UHGV virus genome: UHGV-1607176
Length of the DNA: 11,799 nucleotides
DNA from: a virus
Strand: one strand, 5' to 3'
The notes beneath the pieces were generated by a model. That model was given only the letters and a program-made list of their open reading frames with translations, made no database searches and was not told the DNA's origin. Each line of letters begins with the position of its first letter. Within the stretch, counting starts at the first letter, position 1. Both the position numbers and the translations under genes were made by a program. This document shows, in pieces, positions 2,208 to 11,617 of the stretch.

Positions 2208-2707
2208 GATTGCATAGGGTCCCAAATTCGTGGAAACGTTGATTGTGCGGTTCCATAGGCTTTAAGGAAACATCCCAGCCCATCGCCATAGCAACCGTAC
2301 AAATCCGGAAGATTGTTAATCAGGCACTGGTTCTCAAGGTCCTGGAACGGCGATTTCTCGGCGGTTGCCGTGAAGGTAATTGTCCAGTTAATCCCGTCTT
2401 CGGTGGACTCGGCGATAGTGGACGTAATGGTTACCTGATAATCTTCGATGCCCATGCCGAAGTCGTGCGCCATCCAGAAACTTGACGCACCGCCGTCTAC
2501 TTTTTCGAGGAACGACAGAAACGCCTGTCGCCCCATTGCGGATGTAATCAGGGTTACGCTCACCGGGAACACGTCGTAATACGTGTCGCGCCCCTGACGT
2601 ACACCGCCACCAGCTAAATCAACGCTCCAGACGTTGTTACGTCTGGTCATCGAGTAGCCTTTCGATACAATTGGCTTAAGGCTACGTGGGAAATATAAGT
2701 CGCTCAT
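2204..2707 (-). CDS. Minor tail protein, lambda gpM-like
   Basis: 167-aa ORF immediately downstream of the tape measure gene (start overlaps the TMP stop). Segment YYDVFPVSVTLITSAMGRQAFLSFLEKVDGGASSFWMAHDF resembles the gpM core pattern SVTLS...FLE..GG..SF-W, recalled from memory. Confidence 0.55.
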   Translation of the reverse strand: MSDLYFPRSLKPIVSKGYSMTRRNNVWSVDLAGGGVRQGRDTYYDVFPVSVTLITSAMGRQAFLSFLEKVDGGASSFWMAHDFGMGIEDYQVTITSTIAESTEDGINWTITFTATAEKSPFQDLENQCLINNLPDLYGCYGDGLGCFLKAYGTAQSTFPRIWDPMQS

Positions 2708-4725
2708 TATTTGAACCCCGGCGCGTTTCTTGTGGCCTTGCGAGCCTTGCTAATCTTACTGTTGCTGTTCTGCAAAGACGCGGCAACCTGTTCTTCAATG
2801 ATGATACGCAAACGGCCCTCATCATCTTGCTCAGTGGATACGTTGCCGATTTGAGAACTCGTGTTGTTTACGATAGTAACATTAGATGGGCCACTATTTC
2901 CGCTATTATTACCGTTTAACTGCTGCCGTGTTTGACTTGCATTGGTCGCCCTGCCAGAACCCGCCATCTTGATAATCTCAGGGCCGCGTTCACCAACCAG
3001 GTAACTACCGCCAGCGTTCATTTGCCCGCCTTGCTCACGCGCGCCGCTAATCTTGGCGATGTTCGCCACCCCCGCCGCGACAGCCAGACCCGCGGCAACC
3101 GGAGCGAGTGCCGGGCCGACAATTGGAATAGCAGCAGTTGATTTATAGGCTTCGATAGCAGCCGTGTAAGTGGCAATAGTCGCTTGCGTTATGGCGAACG
3201 CTTTGTACGCAGCGGACGTCTCCCCCAGTGCGGATTTAGCATCCGCTGCCATGCTGCCGAATGCGTCGGCGGTGGCGTTGGCTTGTGCAATATTGCTCTG
3301 TTCGTTCAGGTTACGCACTGCATTAGCGTATTCTTCTTCGCTGATTAGTTTCTGTTTAAGGAAATCGTCCAGTTGCTTAAGTTTGGCGTCATTCTGCCGT
3401 TGGATTTCCTCGAACTCTGTGCCACCAAGCGCCTGTAGTTTCTCCAGATATGCATCAGCATTGTTATACAGCGCATCTCGTTGTGCCTGAAACTCCGCCA
3501 TGATGTCACTTTTCGACTTCTCGTAGTCAGCGTCGCTTACGAGTTGCTTGTCGTGGAACTCCTGCAATTTAGCCAGTTTCTGTTTCTCTTTGGCGTCTAT
3601 CCGTTCTAACTCTGTTCCGGTGTTTGTGTCTATTTGAGCTATAAACTGGTCTGCGGCTTTCTGTGCGCTTTCCTGCGCGCGAGCGTCGGCGCGGGCTTGA
3701 GCATCTGCTCGTTTCTTAGCTGCGGCAGCGATACGATTCTGCCTGTCTATTTCCTTCTGTGCCCTGTCCGCCTTATCCTTTTCATACGTCTTCTCAGATT
3801 GCTCTACCCCTTTTCGCTCGGCTGCGCGGGTCTTTTCCTCCACACCAAGGTAGTTAAGTTCATTTCGCAGTTTATTTATTTCCATCTGCGCTTCTGGCGT
3901 TTTGGCGTTTATGCCGTCCAGGTAGGCGACCAGCCCTTCTCGAGCTCCAGGAACCCCAGCTGCGATTGCTTTCTGAGCAACTTCAATACTGCGTAACTCT
4001 TTGGCGGTCAACCCCGCAGCTTCCGCAGCGGATTCGTACTGGAAAGCCACGGCCCCGGCAGCGTCCCCGCCTTGGGCTATCTGTGATGCGGCAAGGTTGG
4101 TGGTCAACTTCTGAAACAGAGATTGGGCTTTTGTTACCTTATCAATAGCTTCAACAATCTTATCTGCGGTGGAGTTAGCCTGTATGGCGGTTGCCTCTAG
4201 TGCCTTATTAAGAAATGCCATCTTCTCCGCTGTTGTTGCCCCGACAGCGTCCAGTTTTTCCAGTGCGTCATTCATGTCATACACACCGGGTGTGGCCTCA
4301 TTAAGAGCGTCATCAAGGAACTTAGTAGCTTCCTCCAGTTGTTTAGCGGTATCCGTTGAGTTACTCAAAGACGCGTACAGCGCGCCGCCGATTACGGTGG
4401 CGATAGTCAATACCGTGCCCGCAATTGGATTGAATGCGGACACTAACTGACTACCTTGTTGCGTGAAAGCCGTGAGGGCGGACTGCCCCCCTTGGATTTG
4501 TACGATAAAGTCCTGTACCTGATACCCAGCATTACCTATTGACGCCCGCATCGCGTTCATCTTCGGGGTTGCCGCGGAGGTGGTGTCCGTTAGTTTCTTT
4601 GTGCTGGAATCCGCTTTCCCAGCGGAACTACTAAGGTTATCTAACTGCTTTGCTGCTTGCTCCGCTCCAGTTGCCTGGACTCGCACCATTAAACTCGCGG
4701 TATCAGCCATTATAATCGTCCTCAT
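2707..4725 (-). CDS. Tail tape measure protein
   Basis: 672-aa ORF, the largest in the window. Ala/Gln/Lys/Glu-rich coiled-coil-like central region. C-terminal GGSYLVGERGPEII-type motif typical of tape measure proteins. Canonical position after the chaperone pair and before gpM-like. Possible alternative start at 4710 (MADTASL). Confidence 0.85.
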   Translation of the reverse strand: MRTIIMADTASLMVRVQATGAEQAAKQLDNLSSSAGKADSSTKKLTDTTSAATPKMNAMRASIGNAGYQVQDFIVQIQGGQSALTAFTQQGSQLVSAFNPIAGTVLTIATVIGGALYASLSNSTDTAKQLEEATKFLDDALNEATPGVYDMNDALEKLDAVGATTAEKMAFLNKALEATAIQANSTADKIVEAIDKVTKAQSLFQKLTTNLAASQIAQGGDAAGAVAFQYESAAEAAGLTAKELRSIEVAQKAIAAGVPGAREGLVAYLDGINAKTPEAQMEINKLRNELNYLGVEEKTRAAERKGVEQSEKTYEKDKADRAQKEIDRQNRIAAAAKKRADAQARADARAQESAQKAADQFIAQIDTNTGTELERIDAKEKQKLAKLQEFHDKQLVSDADYEKSKSDIMAEFQAQRDALYNNADAYLEKLQALGGTEFEEIQRQNDAKLKQLDDFLKQKLISEEEYANAVRNLNEQSNIAQANATADAFGSMAADAKSALGETSAAYKAFAITQATIATYTAAIEAYKSTAAIPIVGPALAPVAAGLAVAAGVANIAKISGAREQGGQMNAGGSYLVGERGPEIIKMAGSGRATNASQTRQQLNGNNSGNSGPSNVTIVNNTSSQIGNVSTEQDDEGRLRIIIEEQVAASLQNSNSKISKARKATRNAPGFK

Positions 4726-5061: not shown

Positions 5062-5478
5062 CTACTTTACAGATAAAGCTTTGCGGCTCTCAGCATGGTG
5101 TTGAGCGACAGCCCCTCCCAACCCTTTATACTCCTTCAACAGCTTGACCAACGCTTTCTTAGTGAACTTCTCCTCGAAGGACCACCCTACAACAACAACG
5201 GCAGCAAGTGCATCGTTAAGTTTAGCCAATTCACTGTTTAATTCCGTGTTATAGCGCGCCCAGTCCCCTTTCTCGCGGCACTCCGCGTCGAGCGGTTTCA
5301 GGCGGTCAAGGATGTCGCGGTAAGCGGAGATAAAATCCTTAGCTGCGGCGATTGAGTCGTCGCAGTCAGGCCCCATCACCTGCAACCACTCCCCTGAGTC
5401 ACTGCCGTCCGGTAGCAGGATAGGCATCTTAGTTCCCGCAGCGTGGCGGGACGCGAAATAAAAATCAGAAAGTTTCAT
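5062..5478 (-). CDS. Tail assembly chaperone (gpG-like)
   Basis: 138-aa ORF immediately upstream of the T-like ORF and TMP. AAGGA ribosome-binding site 8 nt upstream of the ATG. Assignment is by position and size class only. Confidence 0.5.
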   Translation of the reverse strand: MKLSDFYFASRHAAGTKMPILLPDGSDSGEWLQVMGPDCDDSIAAAKDFISAYRDILDRLKPLDAECREKGDWARYNTELNSELAKLNDALAAVVVVGWSFEEKFTKKALVKLLKEYKGLGGAVAQHHAESRKALSVK

Positions 5479-5571
5479 TCTTTAATCCTTTGGTTAAGAG
5501 GTTGTTGGTTAAAGAGAAATGCACCAGGCGGTAACCAACCGCTTTTCGTGCGCGACACTAGGTGCAAAATT

Positions 5572-5601
5572 ATTCTAACACACTACTTGCACACCCCAAT
5601 A
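5572..5601 (-). promoter_or_regulatory. Candidate extended -10 promoter for the minus-strand tail genes downstream of the island
   Basis: On the minus strand: TGtTAGAAT (reverse complement of plus 5572-5580), with a poor -35 (ATTGGG region). It is positioned to restart transcription of the chaperone/TMP genes after the terminator at 8131-8150. Sequence-only prediction. Confidence 0.3.
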
Positions 5602-5615
5602 TAATAGGGTACTAT
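5587..5615 (+). promoter_or_regulatory. Candidate sigma70 promoter driving the plus-strand island
   Basis: TTGCAC (5587-5592), 17-nt spacer, TACTAT (5610-5615), about 40 nt upstream of the first island ORF. A TATAAT at 5600-5605 overlaps but has no good -35. Confidence 0.35.
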
Positions 5616-5655
5616 TCACTTACACCAACGTTATTAACTTAAATAAGGAATTAAA

Positions 5656-5982
5656 ATGCGTAAATTAATCATAGCCATGGGTCTTATTTCTTTTTGCGCG
5701 GTAGGGTCCCAGTGTGAGCAAGTATATAGTGAAACCCCTTTAGTAACTTCCGGGGTGCTTGATTCAGCCCCTCCGTCTGCCGTTAGTGCGTTTAAAACCG
5801 CTGCTATTCGCGAATGTAATGCTGCCGTGCGCGCTGGCGGGTCTGGCCTTGGTCTTGAATTGATGACATCCCTTGTTGTTGAGTCTGTAGATGTTAACAG
5901 CCCCACTTTCAGCAGCCTACTGTTAGCCACTCGTTTGCAAATGGTTACAACCGGATGGTCAATAGGCGCAGAAAGTAAATAG
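5656..5982 (+). CDS. Small exported protein of unknown function (108 aa, N-terminal signal peptide)
   Basis: Strong ribosome-binding site (AAGGAA 6 nt before ATG). N-terminus MRKLIIAMGLISFCAVGSQC has a basic n-region, hydrophobic core and an A-V-G cleavage-type site. Not a canonical lipobox. Mature part is Ala/Ser/Val-rich with two Cys. Confidence 0.6.
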   Translation: MRKLIIAMGLISFCAVGSQCEQVYSETPLVTSGVLDSAPPSAVSAFKTAAIRECNAAVRAGGSGLGLELMTSLVVESVDVNSPTFSSLLLATRLQMVTTGWSIGAESK

Positions 5983-6047
5983 TTGCCTTTATTTAAAGGA
6001 ATGCACTGTGGTTAAATAGGACAAATCCTAAACACGAGGAAATAGGC

Positions 6048-7202
6048 ATGGCCCAGAAGAAAATAACCGACGAACAGTTACAGGAAGAATTGAACGCTGG
6101 GATGAAGAATATCGACATTGCTCGTAAATACGGCATCTCAGACCGCGTTATTCGTATCCGTAAAGCGAAACTAGCGAAGAAAGGCGTAGGCCACGGGCGT
6201 GACGTTAGCCACCTTGTGCCGGACGGCTACAAGATTAAGGGTACATCGTCTCTGGTTGATGAGTTAGGCAACACTAAACTGCAATGGGTTAAGACCGACA
6301 CCGATGCGGAACGTCAGGTCGAGTTAATGAAAGCCGTTGTGGACGAGATGAAAAAAGATTTACCCAAGTATAAGCCAGTCACTTTGGCCAAAAATGGGAC
6401 AGATGACGACTTATTAAATCTTTACACAATAACAGACCATCACATAGGGATGTTGGCGTGTCAAGAAGAAGGCGGGGATGATTACGACACCACAATCGCG
6501 GAATCTCTCGCGGTTGACTGGTTCAACAGTGCGGTTTGTATGAGTCCACAGAGTGGTGAATGTATCATTAACTTCTTAGGGGACCAAATGCACAACGACG
6601 GCATGAAGGCAATGACCCCTATGAGCGGTCATATTCTTTCAGCGGATAGTCGCCTGTTTAAAATGATACGCACGGCCATTAAGGTTATCAAGCTGGCTGT
6701 CTCACTGTGCTTGCGAAAACACAAGAAGGTTAAACTTCTTATCTGTGAAGGTAACCACGACCTTAGTTCTTCTCTGTGGCTCCGGGAGATGTTCTACGAG
6801 GTATACACAAATGAGCCTCGCGTCGAGGTTAACCGGGAGGTGTCACCGTATTATGCGTACAAGTTCGGGGATTGTATGATTTCAGCACATCACGGGCATT
6901 GTTCTAACTTTGCTAAGGTAGAGCAGGCTATAATCGGTAAGTACCGGGAGATGTACGGGCGGTGTAAGTTCACATATGTCCATACGGGGCACCTCCATCA
7001 CAGGGCGGTTAAAGAGACTAATCTGCTAATTGTTGAGCAACACCAGACATTAGCGGCTAAAGATGAGTATTCTAGTAAGGGCGGCTATTATTCAGGTAGA
7101 AGCGCAAATGTGATTACATACCACAAACGTTACGGGGAGGTGTCCCGCATAAGTATACCTGTCGAAATGCTGCGAGACATAAACCCAAAATCGACATACT
7201 AA
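6048..7202 (+). CDS. HTH domain fused to a calcineurin-like metallophosphoesterase (predicted phosphodiesterase/nuclease)
   Basis: 384-aa ORF with GAGGAA ribosome-binding site. N-terminal about 45 aa is helix-turn-helix-like (NIDIARKYGISDRVIRIRKAKL). It carries the full ordered metallophosphoesterase motif set: DHH (6435-6443), GDQMHNDG (6579-6602), GNHD (6750-6761), HHGH (6888-6899), GHLHH (6987-7001). Confidence 0.8.
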   Translation: MAQKKITDEQLQEELNAGMKNIDIARKYGISDRVIRIRKAKLAKKGVGHGRDVSHLVPDGYKIKGTSSLVDELGNTKLQWVKTDTDAERQVELMKAVVDEMKKDLPKYKPVTLAKNGTDDDLLNLYTITDHHIGMLACQEEGGDDYDTTIAESLAVDWFNSAVCMSPQSGECIINFLGDQMHNDGMKAMTPMSGHILSADSRLFKMIRTAIKVIKLAVSLCLRKHKKVKLLICEGNHDLSSSLWLREMFYEVYTNEPRVEVNREVSPYYAYKFGDCMISAHHGHCSNFAKVEQAIIGKYREMYGRCKFTYVHTGHLHHRAVKETNLLIVEQHQTLAAKDEYSSKGGYYSGRSANVITYHKRYGEVSRISIPVEMLRDINPKSTY

Positions 7203-7217
7203 AATATAGGTGAAAGT

Positions 7218-7718
7218 ATGGATTGGAGTGAGGTTTTTAGCTACAAAAATGGCGTCCTATACTGGAAAGTCAAATCATGTCGCCGTAACGATGTGAATAT
7301 AGGTGATGTGGCCGGGAGTTTGTGTAAAAACGGCTATTGGTATGTCATGTTTGGTAACCGTAAGTTTAAAAGGTCGAGGGTGGTGTATGAGATGTTCTCA
7401 GGTAAGATTCCAAAAGGATTTGTCATAGACCATACTAACCATGATACCTGTGACGACAGAATTGAAAACCTGTCATGCAAATCTAGAAGGGACAACATGG
7501 TTAACGTGAAAAGGCGCAAAGATAATACCTCTGGAGTTACGGGTGTGGCGCGGAAAGGAAAAACTAAGTGGAGAGCTTATGCCGTTGTCAACGGTAAGCA
7601 GATTAGTAAAACATTTGACAGAATAGAGGACGCTTTCGCTGAAAGAATTTACATGTCTGTGGCTAATAGGTTTCACATAAATCATGGACTGACAACATTC
7701 AACAACGGTTATAAATAG
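7218..7718 (+). CDS. HNH homing endonuclease with C-terminal AP2 DNA-binding domain
   Basis: 166-aa ORF with AGGTGA ribosome-binding site. HNH motif GFVIDHTNHDTCDDRIENL (about 7425-7472). AP2-like segment SGVTGVARKGKTKWRAYAVVNGKQISKTFDRIEDAFAERIY (about 7530-7655). Confidence 0.85.
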   Translation: MDWSEVFSYKNGVLYWKVKSCRRNDVNIGDVAGSLCKNGYWYVMFGNRKFKRSRVVYEMFSGKIPKGFVIDHTNHDTCDDRIENLSCKSRRDNMVNVKRRKDNTSGVTGVARKGKTKWRAYAVVNGKQISKTFDRIEDAFAERIYMSVANRFHINHGLTTFNNGYK

Positions 7719-7727
7719 GGTGTAGAG

Positions 7728-7958
7728 ATGACTTCAAAATACAACCGCACAATGACAAACACTCACGGCAGCACCATGACAGTAGACGTTTATGATGTGC
7801 TCCGTGCTTTCGATATCCGTGACCCGGCGCTACAGCATGCGTTAAAGAAGTTATTGTGCATGGGCTTGCGCGGACACAAGGACACCGGAACCGACTTAGC
7901 AGAAGCAATTGAAAGTCTGGAGAAGTTACGGGAATACCGAAGCAATATTGATGAGTGA
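7728..7958 (+). CDS. Small phage protein, DUF3310-like (function unknown)
   Basis: 76-aa ORF with ATG start. Pattern VYDVLRAF...ALQHALKKLLCMGLRGHKDTGTDLAEAIESLEKL resembles the DUF3310 signature (AIKYL-RAG-KG...DL-KA-YL) as I recall it. Not verified by search. Confidence 0.5.
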   Translation: MTSKYNRTMTNTHGSTMTVDVYDVLRAFDIRDPALQHALKKLLCMGLRGHKDTGTDLAEAIESLEKLREYRSNIDE

Positions 7959-7965
7959 AAATATT

Positions 7966-8127
7966 ATGAAAACAATATATGTAATCCGAGTATACGACGA
8001 AGAATGGGACGAGTGGGTTGATATTTATGCCGTTAGTAGTAAGGAAGAGGCCTCTAAAGAAATGACAGAACGAAGGGACCGAGGCCAGTTAACTAACTTC
8101 TACGAAATGCCGTTCAAAAGTGAGTAA
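7966..8127 (+). CDS. Small acidic hypothetical protein (about 53 aa)
   Basis: The track ORF 7909..8127 starts at a TTG and overlaps the previous gene. In-frame ATGs lie at 7951 and 7966, and 7966 is chosen because it follows the upstream stop. Sequence MKTIYVIRVYDEEWDEWVDIYAVSSKEEASKEM... is acidic. Followed directly by the terminator. Confidence 0.4.
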   Translation: MKTIYVIRVYDEEWDEWVDIYAVSSKEEASKEMTERRDRGQLTNFYEMPFKSE

Positions 8128-8130
8128 GAA

Positions 8131-8157
8131 AAGGCCCCTTTCGGGGCCTTAGTTTTA
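8131..8157. terminator. Bidirectional rho-independent terminator between the convergent island and major tail gene
   Basis: Perfect 8-bp stem AAGGCCCC (8131-8138) / GGGGCCTT (8143-8150) with 4-nt loop TTTC. Followed by a T-run on the plus strand (8153-8156) and a TTCTT stretch on the minus strand. Lies in the 27-nt gap between the plus-strand stop (8125-8127) and the minus-strand stop (8155-8157). Confidence 0.75.
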
Positions 8158-9321
8158 TGCGTAACTAATACGTTGAATTACGATAGACGACTGATACTGG
8201 TTGCCTGTGGACTGCCCTTCTATACTTTGGGTAATTGACTCAGGCCCACCAATCTCAGGTGTAACCGCCGTGAGTTCTGCGCGTTTCAAACTAAAAGACA
8301 TAGCCCCGTTTACCCCCGCCAGAATAGAGTTAATCTCCACCTGCTGTTCGTTGATAAACTTCTGAATCATAGCCATGTCGTACAGCTTGCCGGAGATGGA
8401 GAAGGTGTTAGCCGCGCGGCTACGTTCCACAAACGCTACGTTAGTGTTGCCGAGTTCGAACTGCGCCGACGCGCTGTTGTCGTTGGTGATGGTCAGGCTG
8501 TCGCAACGCAACGGCGTAGAACCGTCGAACACAGAAACATCGACCGAGGAGAATGGCTCGTCACCAAACGTAACAGAGGAGAAATCAGAACCAGACGGCT
8601 GCGTGGTGAGAATCTCCTGACTGCGACCGATGAACGGGAAGCTGCCAGTTACCATCGCGTTAACAGCCTGTTCGATGGTAAAACCAGAAACTTCCACGCC
8701 TTTGGTTAACGTGTACGCGTCAGTACCGCCGCACTGGCCTTTGTACCAGGTAAGGATAGAGAACGTCTTACACGCGTTACCGGTTTCCAACGTGTCGCCA
8801 GTTTTAGCCTTACTAGTTTTTGTCTCGGTGGTCAGGGTGTGTTGGATGCCCGCACCAGTAACAACCGTAGCCGTTACTGCAGTAACAATAAATGGTTTTG
8901 CGTTATCGCCTGTTAAATCGGTAAACGCAATCAGGTCGCCTACCCCAACTCCGTCAGTGATAAAACTGCCGGTAGCGCGTGTGAACGTCTTGCCCGCGGG
9001 TGCGACGGTAATCGATAGTCCTGACCGGGAAACGCCGGATTGCCACGTAGAGCCTAAAGCCCCGGCTAACCAGTCGTCCTGACTTTTAGAGCTAAGCTCA
9101 ATAGCGTATTCTCCGCTAACCTGCTTGTTACCGGTGCGGATGGATGTGGTTTCTCGGCTGCCGTCAAGTTCGTTGGAGGTCAGCGTGTCGCGGGTAATGG
9201 CAGGAACGCCGCCCGTGTTGCGCAACGGCGACCATACCGGGTTAGCCGGTGTTACGCCCGGGGTAGTTTCTGCCACATAGAATTGCGCAGTATTCGCGCC
9301 CTTAAAAGGAGTTGTAGCCAT
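8155..9321 (-). CDS. Putative major tail (tube) protein
   Basis: 388-390-aa ORF. The track start at 9327 is a GTG overlapping the upstream stop, and the first ATG is 9321..9319 with AAGAGG upstream. It is the last large gene of the neck module before the chaperone/TMP genes and is followed by a strong terminator. Thr/Gly/Ser-rich. Assignment is by synteny; a capsid-related role is not excluded. Confidence 0.5.
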   Translation of the reverse strand: MATTPFKGANTAQFYVAETTPGVTPANPVWSPLRNTGGVPAITRDTLTSNELDGSRETTSIRTGNKQVSGEYAIELSSKSQDDWLAGALGSTWQSGVSRSGLSITVAPAGKTFTRATGSFITDGVGVGDLIAFTDLTGDNAKPFIVTAVTATVVTGAGIQHTLTTETKTSKAKTGDTLETGNACKTFSILTWYKGQCGGTDAYTLTKGVEVSGFTIEQAVNAMVTGSFPFIGRSQEILTTQPSGSDFSSVTFGDEPFSSVDVSVFDGSTPLRCDSLTITNDNSASAQFELGNTNVAFVERSRAANTFSISGKLYDMAMIQKFINEQQVEINSILAGVNGAMSFSLKRAELTAVTPEIGGPESITQSIEGQSTGNQYQSSIVIQRISYA

Positions 9322-9323
9322 AT

Positions 9324-9740
9324 TCACAGCCTCTTGGTGAATGCAATAAAGTTAATTGACAATGGTCGTTTGGCCCATCCGTTTTCTACAATCAGCGGCC
9401 CCAGGCTAACCGATTGAACCTCGGCGCAGATGTCGTTACGTGAAAATGACTTACCTGCTTTAAACGCCGTGTTAAGTAAGTCTGCCATTTTATTGATTGG
9501 CGCGCTACCTTTCACCGATGCGTAGTTAATATCTACCTGATAGACGCCAGCGCGTTGTTCCGTGAAGAACAAATCCGCCTGTTCCGTATCCGCCAGCAAC
9601 ATGTAACTTGCCAGATATGGTGTATCGGTTGACGTCGGTGCGCCGATATTTTCAAGCGCGACTTTGATGCCGTTGGCGGTTCCGAAGGCTACCAGCGGCA
9701 CATCAAACGCTTTTGTTAAGTCCTCAAAGTAGCCCATCAT
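9324..9740 (-). CDS. Neck / tail completion protein (tail terminator-like by position)
   Basis: 138-aa ORF with ATG start, translationally coupled to both neighbours by ATGA overlaps. Lies immediately upstream of the putative major tail gene. Confidence 0.4.
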   Translation of the reverse strand: MMGYFEDLTKAFDVPLVAFGTANGIKVALENIGAPTSTDTPYLASYMLLADTEQADLFFTEQRAGVYQVDINYASVKGSAPINKMADLLNTAFKAGKSFSRNDICAEVQSVSLGPLIVENGWAKRPLSINFIAFTKRL

Positions 9741-10132
9741 TTCACCTTGTTGGCTTCTTCGTTAATGAGTTGCTGGAAGCGGGACACGTTAGTCCTGACC
9801 ACCCCGGCGGGTGCCTGTTGCGACCAGCCATACTCCAGCCGTTGTGCATACGGCAGGTTATTTGTCAGCGTGAACTCGTGCCAGTCTGCGGCTTTCAGTA
9901 CGAAACTCGTAGCGTTTCCGGTTGCCGTGTTTCCTGATTTATCCGTAGCGTCTGTAATACCGGAAGCAGGAGTACCGCCAGATGCCATCCAGTTCATACG
10001 AAAGCGACCCGTATCTACCGGACTCGCCTCTATAATAGCGGAAAACAGCTTGATAGACACCTGGCGCATCACCGTCTCAGGGTTCTTCTTCGCCTTTTCC
10101 ACGAACTTAGAGACATCGAGCGCGAAACTCAT
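9737..10132 (-). CDS. HK97 gp10-like tail-component / head-tail joining protein
   Basis: 131-aa ORF containing DTGRFRMNW and YAQRLEYG, which resemble the hallmark DTGRLR...YA..EYG pattern of the HK97 gp10 family (from memory). ATGA overlaps on both sides. Confidence 0.55.
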   Translation of the reverse strand: MSFALDVSKFVEKAKKNPETVMRQVSIKLFSAIIEASPVDTGRFRMNWMASGGTPASGITDATDKSGNTATGNATSFVLKAADWHEFTLTNNLPYAQRLEYGWSQQAPAGVVRTNVSRFQQLINEEANKVK

Positions 10133-10488
10133 TTTCTCACCTGAATAAAGTAGGCCACGACATCATCATTAACCATCTTCTTCTCAATGGTTACGACGGA
10201 CCATTGCTCTCCGCCGAATTGAACCTTGTCTTCCATCTTCGGTACGACACTGTAATCGGCTTTAACAATCATGTCGCCGGCCTGAATCGTCGTACCATTT
10301 ACCAGTCCCGCGTTTACCGGAACCGGAACGGCCTTCAACGGCAACACTTCATCGTCAGACCATACGTACTCGCCGAGGGCTTCATCCCACACTTTCGAGC
10401 CAGCGCGAATCAGCGACACCGTGCTGCCGAATTTGGTTAGCAGGTGCGTACCCACGCCTTGCATACGCTTACTGAAAGCGGTGCTCAT
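10129..10488 (-). CDS. Head-tail adaptor / head closure-like protein
   Basis: The track ORF extends to 10542, but the ATG at 10488..10486 overlaps the stop of the upstream gene (TGATG), matching the coupling pattern of neighbouring genes. That gives about 119 aa. Assignment by position and size. Confidence 0.4.
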   Translation of the reverse strand: MSTAFSKRMQGVGTHLLTKFGSTVSLIRAGSKVWDEALGEYVWSDDEVLPLKAVPVPVNAGLVNGTTIQAGDMIVKADYSVVPKMEDKVQFGGEQWSVVTIEKKMVNDDVVAYFIQVRK

Positions 10489-11102
10489 CAGGCGGCCTCC
10501 AGTCTTGAGATAACCAGTAGCGCGGATGGTGCTGTGCCCCATGCGGTCACGGTAGCCGCTTGCGGGTATACGCCGCCGTAGTTGCTTCCGGAGCTATCTC
10601 GCATAATCTGAACGGCAAACGTCTGGCCTGCTGTCGGGTTAATAACAACGCGGGATTCAATCGGAATCGTTACGTCGGCGCTGACTAGTTTCGTGGCGGC
10701 GGGCGAGCCGTACTGAGCGCCATTTACTAAAATACGTGATGGCAAGATTGATGTACCGCTAGCACCCGTGCGCCCCGCCTGCAACTTGATGCGAACGGCG
10801 TAGTTTCCGGGGGTGTTGAACGTAACCAGCCCTGCGGCATTAATCGTTACTGGGTCGGATGCGCTACCCTGAGCGGAGCCAAAAGTTAACTGCAATGCTG
10901 TATCTACCGCGGTTGGTGCTTGTGCTATGGTAGACGCAGCACGTAGAACTTCAACTTCTTTAACGCCTGGAGTGGCGTAGATAGGCGAGTCCGCCATCTG
11001 CGTCATTACCTCGCGCAATGCGGCGGGGGTAATAAGACCGGTCGTGTTGTCAGGTAGCTCGGACCCGATTAGCGTAAATATCTCTGTTTTAGTCTTCGCC
11101 AT
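10488..11102 (-). CDS. Phage structural protein of unknown role (neck/head module)
   Basis: 204-aa ORF with ATG start. Ala/Thr/Gly/Ser-rich with beta-rich appearance. No motif I can name. Confidence 0.4.
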   Translation of the reverse strand: MAKTKTEIFTLIGSELPDNTTGLITPAALREVMTQMADSPIYATPGVKEVEVLRAASTIAQAPTAVDTALQLTFGSAQGSASDPVTINAAGLVTFNTPGNYAVRIKLQAGRTGASGTSILPSRILVNGAQYGSPAATKLVSADVTIPIESRVVINPTAGQTFAVQIMRDSSGSNYGGVYPQAATVTAWGTAPSALLVISRLEAA

Positions 11103-11104
11103 TT

Positions 11105-11617
11105 TTAACCCCGGTACACATTAAATGAGAAGCCGTTGTTAAGACCGCCACACAGTAACGGGCGTAAAGCGTCGTCCGCGGCGGTAATAGCAGTTGTAGC
11201 CCCGCTGTTGCCGTTGTTGAAGTAGGTCACTGTCACCGCACCCTCAACACGCTCAGTCTGCACGGAACGCCCGTCTGAGTTAGCCCGCACCTCAGTACCC
11301 GCGCCATAGGTAACAGCAGCAATTACCTGCGCAAGAATTACCTGCTTCGGGATGACGTTGTTAGCTACAGGGAAGCCGTTCAACGTTACACCAGTGCGAG
11401 GATATGCCAGTGACTGTTCGGCGGATACACGACGACCACACATCTGCGGTTCTGCAAGCCCGACATAAGTAGCACCGTTGCGCAAGGCCACCTCTGCGGC
11501 GGTATCGTCCGCAGGCAGCTCCAGACCATAATTAGCCGCTAACGCGCGGGCGTCAGCCAGACTAATGTAACTGTCGGCATTAGGGACGATTGCCCCAGTT
11601 TCCACGATTAGCGGCAT
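11105..11617 (-). CDS. Head-tail connector protein (gp6 / DnaT-like domain family, tentative)
   Basis: 170-aa ORF with GAGGA ribosome-binding site. N-terminus MPLIVETGAIVPNADSYISLADARA resembles the conserved N-terminus of phage gp6-type head-tail connector proteins as I recall them. Confidence 0.45.
   Translation of the reverse strand: MPLIVETGAIVPNADSYISLADARALAANYGLELPADDTAAEVALRNGATYVGLAEPQMCGRRVSAEQSLAYPRTGVTLNGFPVANNVIPKQVILAQVIAAVTYGAGTEVRANSDGRSVQTERVEGAVTVTYFNNGNSGATTAITAADDALRPLLCGGLNNGFSFNVYRG

Follow-up and report, generated by a model that had tools for sequence, protein, structure and literature searches.

The closest described relative of the element treated here is the int-alpA RNA motif (RF02996 in Rfam), which is said to be one of the 224 motifs of Weinberg and co-workers, 2017, although the main text of that study does not contain the term 'alpA'. 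A literature search found no functional study of int-alpA. The motif is named after its position between integrase and alpA-like genes, a context that names the family but does not define it. The canonical copy, from E. coli KFu015, heads a satellite-like element and is located in a gap of 92 nt that follows a tyrosine recombinase gene, the order being int, the motif, a 313-aa open reading frame (ORF), HTH, KilAC, Icd-like and DUF927. Partial likenesses exist to the P4 CI and P1/P7 c4 RNAs (C4 family, RF01695) and to IsrK of the Gifsy-1 prophage. The subject of this report is the 177-bp spacer at positions 5479-5655 of an 11,799-nt stretch of the UHGV virus genome UHGV-1607176 (this whole stretch is called the window below); it is the largest gap in the window and is flanked by divergent ORFs, one for a tail assembly chaperone. 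Our analysis points, with a probability of about 60%, to a spacer made up of back-to-back divergent promoters and a conserved leader RNA, which would regulate translation of the chaperone and tail genes through pairing between a loop and two sites downstream of it.

Structure of the Leader RNA

The Rfam scan yielded an int-alpA match at 5503-5568 on the minus strand, covering positions 1-71 of the 71-position model with 35.0 bits; the E-value was 3e-4 for the whole window and 8.5e-6 when only the 321-nt region was scanned. Energy minimisation of the minus-strand leader gave the family structure, in which helix P1 encloses hairpins P2 and P3 (Table 1), and the window junctions CC-UA-G, C-GAAAA-GCGG and CCGC-CU-GG align to upper-case positions of the int-alpA consensus. 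Architecture, junction sequence and the model match, which is 0.8 bits short of the gathering score, support the view that the predicted leader RNA is a divergent member of the int-alpA motif. The homologous position in phage K1H scored 31.6 bits and that in locus L034 (L-numbers denote the compared loci) 33.5 bits, the gathering score of RF02996 being 35.8 bits. No second copy of the RNA was detected, with one int-alpA match in the window and one in the whole K1H genome.

Two other matches in the region were rejected. First, a DUF2815 RNA match (5606-5658, plus strand) reached 17.7 bits against a gathering score of 41.2 and aligned only at AGGGUA and the ribosome-binding site with AUG; K1H encodes a DUF2815 protein, yet the RNA was unmatched there at E<=5, and the window match is probably not meaningful. 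Second, a CRISPR-DR55 match of 20.5 bits was far under its threshold, only ribosome-binding-site-like or low-complexity sequence being aligned.

A preliminary description of the spacer, made from the sequence alone, had listed its elements separately, and all of them were recovered at the same positions. The direct repeats TGGTTAAGAG (5491-5500) and TGGTTAAAGAG (5506-5516) are of the TGGTTAA(A)GAG type, a repeat search giving TTGGTTAA at 5490-5497 and 5505-5512, 15 bp apart. A segment GTTGGTTA (5504-5511) is complementary to TAACCAAC (5532-5539) with 8 of 8 matches, and the hairpin reads GCGGT-AACCA-ACCGC (5528-5542) on the plus strand, followed by TTTT (5543-5546). These features are real, yet none is significant singly: a 5-bp hairpin alone is unremarkable, the window contains eight sites resembling consensus promoters where shuffles predict 11.8, and TAACCAA occurs five times against 1.6 expected (three of the five within the RNA element). 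Their significance comes from the covariance-model match and the comparative data, not from single-feature statistics.

Taken together, hairpin, TTTT, direct repeats and complementary segment all belong to a single structured minus-strand RNA. The hairpin followed by T residues does exist at 5528-5546, but its terminator-like reading falls away, as it represents the P3 helix and the GAAAA junction of that RNA; the terminator scan made no call here, no plus-strand gene ends upstream, and the T-run is the complement of GAAAA. Likewise, the repeats and the complementary segment are present but are not separate items, being the UAACCAA sites and the P3 loop of the same molecule. The enclosing three-helix fold and the match to a described RNA family had escaped the preliminary description.

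A further direct repeat, ACACTAGGTGCA and ACACTACTTGCA, lies at 5555-5566 and 5580-5591 on the plus strand, 25 nt start to start. On the RNA strand, the 5' arm of P1, the junction and the start of P2 thereby resemble the promoter spacer just upstream; this repeat, possibly the remnant of a duplication, is kept in relatives.

Comparative Support for the Fold

Loci were retrieved via the chaperone protein, and the locus sample is therefore independent of the RNA. The retrieved relatives carry the element at the same place, with the exception of L002; in L012-L014 the fold is divergent. P1 reads GCACC/GGUGC in the window, GCGCC/GGCGC in most relatives and GCGUC/GGCGC in L017, and P2 reads GUG/CAC in the window, CGG/CCG in L017-19 and CCG/CGG in L034. 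A wider retrieval by the core pattern GAAAAGCGG-N3-11-CCGYCTGR yielded the same architecture from many unrelated IMG/VR contigs; as the pattern fixed the P3 stem and the GAAAA bases, covariation in P3 is uninformative and the invariance of the junction is partly built in.

In an alignment of 33 sequences (A1), 87% of the cells were paired, against 64% in shuffles, and the covariation score was 0.58, compared with 0.16 in shuffled alignments (reached in 0 of 500) and 0.07-0.13 with the partners slid. Changes on both sides were seen at 8 of 9 pairs in P1 and 4 of 4 in P2. G-U pairs at several positions, including the closing pairs of P3 in relatives, are compatible with the minus strand only; this is thus a feature of the chaperone strand at the RNA level, or at any rate at the level of a single strand. 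Copies with the same core from unrelated contigs scored 40-66 bits and form a continuous series down to the Guernseyvirinae (31.6-35.0 bits); the phage lineage thus represents a divergent branch just under the Rfam cut-off.

The divergent leader of L012-L014 has P1 GCCGAGGA/UCCUCGGC, P2 GGG-UCAUU-CCC, a GAAAC junction and P3 GCG-CUUGGUUAU-CGC. It retains the UUGGUU loop and AACCA(A/G) sites while 'invariant' junction bases differ, and would help in redefining the family core. Locus L051 (2370-2735) has a strong int-alpA copy (66 bits), and its contig also carries a Proteo-phage-1 RNA (69 bits) beside a tRNA.

Complementarity between the P3 Loop and Downstream Sites

The UUGGUUA stretch of the P3 loop region is complementary to two UAACCAA sites, 9 and 24 nt downstream of P1; the remaining two TAACCAA of the window lie within genes, away from start codons. 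In the wider set the P3 loop varies freely and is complementary to one, usually two, sites in its own leader. Examples are CCCCCUA with UAGGGG and UAGGGGG, AUCACUCAA with UUGAGUGA, UCAUUA with UAAUGA (twice), ACCUCCC with GGGAGGU and GGAGG, and AUAUACCG with CGGUAU and GGUAUAU. The test set comprised 13 loop classes sharing no 5-mer, from unrelated phage or satellite contigs, and sites of at least 5 nt were counted. Complementary sites in the own leader totalled 126 nt, against 11.8 +/- 7.9 nt after derangement of loops and leaders, and two or more sites were found in 10 of the 13 classes, with 0.17 expected (0 of 5000 derangements in both cases, a significance that depends on how independent loop classes are defined). 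Measured from the motif, the sites are located about 11-17 and 25-32 nt downstream and the start codon 33-51 nt downstream; in these other classes, too, the distal site abuts or overlaps the Shine-Dalgarno (SD) sequence.

Many leaders also have a predicted hairpin of 4-6 bp just before the start codon, whose loop contains the SD or the distal site, as in GCGU-GAAAGGUG-ACGC and UGCC-GGAG-GGCA (L042, L053, L063, L081, L104, L109, L110, L132, L136, L138, L145 and L051/L157). Its stems vary between classes and it lies outside the Rfam model. Together with P3, this predicted hairpin suggests a loop-loop kissing geometry.

Divergent Promoters

Neither promoter of the spacer was called by the consensus promoter scan of the window, and support for both was therefore drawn from conservation. 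The preliminary description had proposed a candidate on each strand, and both proved to be conserved in position. On the minus strand, TGTTAGAAT places TGn directly before a hexamer with A at position 2 and T at position 6. In relatives this element is kept as TGnTAGAAT or TGnTATTCT; TG is constant while n is T, C, A or G, the pattern expected of an extended -10. The -35-like element is unconserved, in line with an extended -10 promoter that has no need of a -35. The poor -35 and the TGn beside a TAnnnT hexamer are as in other extended -10 sigma-70 promoters. Five nucleotides separate the end of the -10 from P1, which places the expected transcript start at the foot of P1, at about 5564-5566 on the minus strand. 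In phage-borne copies of the other classes, most have a -10 box (at least 5 of 6 matches) ending 4-10 nt before P1.

The plus-strand promoter matches the consensus at 7 of 12 positions by our count, and Jersey-like relatives have TTGCAT-17-TATTAT in register (TTGCAy-17-TAyTAT). Its 33-nt sequence is found again in K1H at 35237-35269. The 16-mer ATAGGGTACTATTCAC has six copies in K1H, with 0.14 expected, three of the six having TTGCAC at 17 nt; the plus-strand site thus belongs to a repeated phage promoter family. The K1H copies lie upstream of the gp20 homologue, gp41 (HTH), gp44 and one unannotated ORF, with blocks at 4486-4501(-), 31724-31784(+), 35237-35269(+) and 36570-36602(+) in this genome (L037). 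The unannotated ORF starts near 35301 (MFKNGQLVKC...), in a 2-kb stretch with no annotated genes. The two promoters are arranged back to back and overlap, since the -35 of the plus strand is flanked by the -10 and the -35 of the minus strand. Closely spaced divergent pairs with overlapping polymerase sites are known elsewhere, and the predicted window pair is nothing unusual among them.

The spacer had been described as a sizeable non-coding, divergent control region, and this holds well beyond the window, the region being conserved in at least 244 phage records. Extra places among the phage-record matches (2-3 per record) turned out to be copies of the plus-strand promoter block, not further copies of the RNA.

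Proposed Mechanism and Alternative Explanations

In the mechanism that we favour, the plus-strand copy of the phage promoter TTGCAC-N17-TACTAT would drive the island genes, while the minus-strand extended -10 would start transcription at the foot of the three-helix RNA. The scaffold would present the P3 loop UUGGUUA to the two UAACCAA repeats, the distal one touching the SD of the chaperone gene. Pairing of loop and site, either intramolecular or by a released leader fragment on a read-through transcript, would then control ribosome access to the chaperone start: the SD-adjacent duplex would limit access of the 30S subunit, and translational coupling and polarity would extend the control to the tape measure and distal tail genes. 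Repression by occlusion of the ribosome-binding site is the most likely direction of control. The proximal site could serve as a competing decoy, provide a second place for binding or belong to a hairpin that sequesters the SD.

Several observations weigh against this interpretation. First, the RNA match in the window is 0.8 bits under the curated Rfam threshold, and folding of the 92-nt leader barely beats shuffles (z = -1.31, not significant). Second, the strong loop-site statistics come from the other classes, not from the Guernseyvirinae, where loop (UGGUU) and sites (AACCA) show almost no variation. Only L034 is informative there: its loop has GGUCA in place of GGUUA, and UGACC replaces UAACC at both sites; covariation of this type was reached by 35-36 of 500 shuffles, and pairing evidence from the Guernseyvirinae taken by themselves is weak because it consists of this one compensatory event. 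Moreover, the loop-site duplex has 5 bp in most relatives, compared with 7 bp (about -6.5 kcal/mol) in the window. Third, the window leader could form an alternative hairpin, UCUUUAACC with GGAUUAAAGA, pairing site 1 to the SD/AUG region; if so, binding of the loop to site 1 could be activating instead of repressive. Fourth, L002, the locus with the nearest chaperone, has no such leader, and the element is thus dispensable for chaperone expression as such. Finally, the one Kagunavirus time-course RNA-seq study found in the literature gives gene-level classes only, with no resolution of start sites.

The best surviving alternative, possible though a good deal less probable, is that the same RNA acts mainly in trans: its first 50-65 nt would be set free in the U-rich stretch that follows P1, through pausing, termination or cleavage by an RNase, and would bind both repeats on later read-through transcripts, blocking chaperone translation and causing Rho-dependent polarity, in an autoregulatory or immunity-like manner as in P4 CI. 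Two target sites per loop suit several RNA molecules better than a single intramolecular pseudoknot, and the combination of a conserved scaffold with loop/target pairs that differ widely from element to element recalls antisense specificity systems. Rfam classes int-alpA as an sRNA (small RNA) gene; P4 CI RNA, which pairs with seqA and seqC, and IsrK, which is both leader and sRNA, are precedents; and the spacer at 5489-5519 is C-rich and has no G, resembling a Rho loading site. However, no intrinsic terminator is predicted after P1, the almost uniform loops of the Guernseyvirinae give no sign there of diversification in specificity, the window has no other SD-adjacent TAACCAA, and it is unclear how a virulent phage would benefit from tail-gene expression that falls as the RNA accumulates.

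It is unlikely that the fold serves only to stabilise the 5' end of the mRNA against 5'-end-dependent decay by RNase E, the loop-repeat complementarity having no regulatory role. P1 does begin at the predicted 5' end, and 5'-terminal stem-loops reportedly stabilise E. coli mRNAs (the work is said to be that of Emory, Bouvet and Belasco, 1992). Such a function would leave unexplained both the invariant junction nucleotides of unrelated elements and the joint changes of loop and sites.

The preliminary description had offered two readings of the repeats, regulator binding sites or leader RNA structure, and it is the second that stands. As DNA operators, the repeats and the palindromic segment would be bound by a phage regulator, such as the HTH domain of the 384-aa protein encoded in the adjacent island, which would control both promoters. 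Direct repeats 15 bp apart between divergent genes, with an HTH-bearing protein encoded next door, would agree with this. We nevertheless consider it very improbable: the repeats are situated in the transcribed leader, 55-75 bp past the minus-strand start, and not at the promoters; the G-U pairs tie the pairing to one strand; elements whose neighbouring proteins are wholly different have this architecture as well; and the repeats, being complementary to the P3 loop, change with it in unrelated elements.

Just as little can be said for the RNA being a processive antiterminator acting on RNA polymerase for the long tail operon, like the put RNAs of phage HK022, since its promoter-proximal position at the head of a long late operon, its two hairpins and an invariant core suggestive of a conserved host partner are set against the lack of any convincing minus-strand terminator predicted from 5478 to the left end of the window (only weak sites, e.g., 1280-1265), against the loop-site complementarity at the SD, which would stay unexplained, and against the put RNAs themselves, which are not known to have an enclosing helix.

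Genomic Setting

The window corresponds to the tail region of a Guernseyvirinae siphophage (Kagunavirus/Jerseyvirus-like). Its gene order is the same as in XY1 and K1H, and the spacer and island are 93-97% identical to those of Escherichia phages BUCT823 and vB_EcoS_XY1. The coordinates of genes and spacer elements are collected in Table 1.

Table 1. Genes, promoters and leader RNA elements in and around the 5479-5655 spacer.
Feature	Position	Strand	Remarks
Head-tail and tail-tube genes	8155-11617	-	
Island	5656-8127	+	
First island ORF	5656-5982	+	108 aa; N-terminus hydrophobic, signal-peptide-like
First island gene, SD AAGGA and ATG	5645-5658	+	
Plus-strand promoter: TTGCAC 5587-5592, 17-nt spacer, TACTAT 5610-5615; block ATAGGGTACTATTCAC 5604-5619	5587-5619	+	7/12 to consensus; conserved
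-35-like TTGGGG, weak	5594-5599	-	16 nt upstream of -10; unconserved in Jersey-like relatives
Extended -10 TGTTAGAAT; hexamer TAGAAT 5577-5572	5572-5580	-	From sequence; conserved in relatives; absent from consensus scan list
Core three-helix fold, about 47 nt	5520-5566	-	P1 UGCACC (5566-5561) with GGUGCA (5525-5520), enclosing P2 and P3
P2 hairpin GUG(U)-CGC-(G)CAC	5548-5558	-	4/4 pairs compensatory
GAAAA junction between P2 and P3	5543-5547	-	Invariant in A1; upper-case in Rfam consensus
P3 hairpin GCGGU-UGGUU-ACCGC	5528-5542	-	Loop 5537-5533; complementary stretch UUGGUUA 5538-5532
Site 1 UAACCAA	5505-5511	-	Complementary to P3 loop region; duplex -6.3 kcal/mol
Site 2 UAACCAA	5490-5496	-	Directly 5' of SD; duplex -6.6 kcal/mol
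Chaperone SD AGGA 5489-5486; ATG 5478-5476	5476-5489	-	
Tail assembly chaperone gene	5062-5478	-	Annotated as tail assembly chaperone in relatives; frameshift extension comes next
Tape measure gene	2707-4725	-	Distal tail genes beyond

A perfect 8-bp GC-rich palindromic hairpin, AAGGCCCC-TTTC-GGGGCCTT, lies at 8131-8150 and is predicted to be a bidirectional terminator that could end transcription of the tail-tube gene on the minus strand as well as that of the island on the plus strand. Because this terminator appears strong, it is plausible that expression of the tail genes relies on the spacer region. The counterpart of this hairpin in K1H gave a weak, spurious match to Atu_C8.

Near position 5454, within the 5' end of the chaperone gene, there is a mosaic junction; rightwards of it, near-identity to BUCT823 and XY1 extends across the spacer and island. 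The chaperone protein of the window has at most 60% identity to any IMG/VR relative, and in L002, which has the closest chaperone, the upstream region differs and contains no int-alpA-like leader. Promoter, leader and island appear to move together as a cassette. The content of the island varies: at 7218-7718 (plus strand) the window has an ORF for an HNH-like protein of 166 aa and two small ORFs, while XY1 and K1H (loci L001 and L037) have genes for a phosphoesterase, a polynucleotide kinase and an ATP-binding protein at this position, and the HNH gene looks like a homing-endonuclease replacement. An inverted repeat at 5481-5498 and 5638-5655 (78% over 18 nt) is due to the nearly identical ribosome-binding contexts of the divergent genes, AAGGAUUAAAGAAUG and AAGGAAUUAAAAUG.

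Significance

These results place an unannotated putative regulatory RNA at the head of the chaperone, tape measure and tail-tip operon in the Guernseyvirinae, a large group of phages of Salmonella and E. coli that are employed in biocontrol and therapy, and would account for a conserved intergenic block that is blank in current annotations. The Rfam threshold narrowly misses this whole lineage. By its sequence and predicted fold, the leader is classed as an added member of a described orphan motif, to which it brings a mechanistic clue that may be new. As int-alpA has no assigned function, as far as we found, a loop matched to sites at the downstream ribosome-binding site offers a testable hypothesis.

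Comparison with Known Systems

The window RNA matches the int-alpA model over its full length on the correct strand, though 0.8 bits under the gathering score, and shares with the family the P1(P2,P3) topology, the invariant junctions C-UA-G, GAAAA, GCGG/CCGC and CU-G, a position just upstream of a start codon, and the complementarity of loop and downstream sites that is also seen in above-threshold copies. It differs in having a shorter P1 (6 bp) and P3 loop (5-7 nt), and its loop UGGUU contrasts with the anti-SD-like CCUU/CCCU of the consensus, so that the sites flank the SD instead of being the SD. The genetic context is different as well: the window RNA lies between the tail chaperone gene and the island, in the tail-assembly operon of a virulent Guernseyvirinae phage, whereas the family is known from the int-proximal region of an integrative satellite.

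Several above-threshold copies likewise occur outside the integrase and alpA context. One (L098) is directly upstream of an Endonuclease VII gene (Pfam), and those of L104 and L145 precede ORFs for cysteine-rich, HNH-like proteins (translations read by eye). The downstream genes of L065, L121 and L132 are HNH/NUMOD-like by eye; L065, as L098, L104 and L145, is above the threshold, while L121 and L132 are known from the core pattern and have no score. The int-alpA leader may thus travel with homing endonuclease cassettes. A Pfam search with ten downstream proteins of the other classes was nearly all blank, with one Endonuclease VII, and no common protein partner emerged. That the core is invariant in elements without any protein in common favours a self-contained fold, or a partner from the host, over a phage protein.

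IsrK, too, is a structured RNA close to its promoter, and its short form alters downstream translation by acting on the read-through form. There is no match in sequence or structure, the isrK model matching P4 and not the window; moreover, IsrK activates and ends at a defined intrinsic terminator. The likeness to P4 CI and P1/P7 c4 is a functional resemblance only: a closing helix encloses two hairpins, the second with an antisense loop, and this loop is complementary to two sites of the same transcription unit, which in the known RNAs controls downstream expression. Identity with these RNAs was rejected, as the P4 CI control scored 74.9 bits for C4 and the window (5400-5720) gave no C4 match at E<=10. 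The closing helix of C4 measures about 17 bp and its junctions differ, the sites in P4 flank the RNA on both sides whereas both window sites are downstream, and P4 CI is released by processing whereas the window RNA appears to start at its promoter. A broader and distinctly tentative view is that the int-alpA scaffold constitutes a general and portable 'programmable antisense' module, with a conserved core, perhaps recognised by, or folded for, a host-wide partner, and a freely evolvable loop matched to two sites at the ribosome-binding site of the gene behind it. Such a module would head genes as different as satellite regulators, homing endonuclease genes and the Guernseyvirinae tail-assembly operon, and would act partly in trans, in an autoregulatory or immunity-like manner, parallel to but independent of P4 CI and P1 c4.

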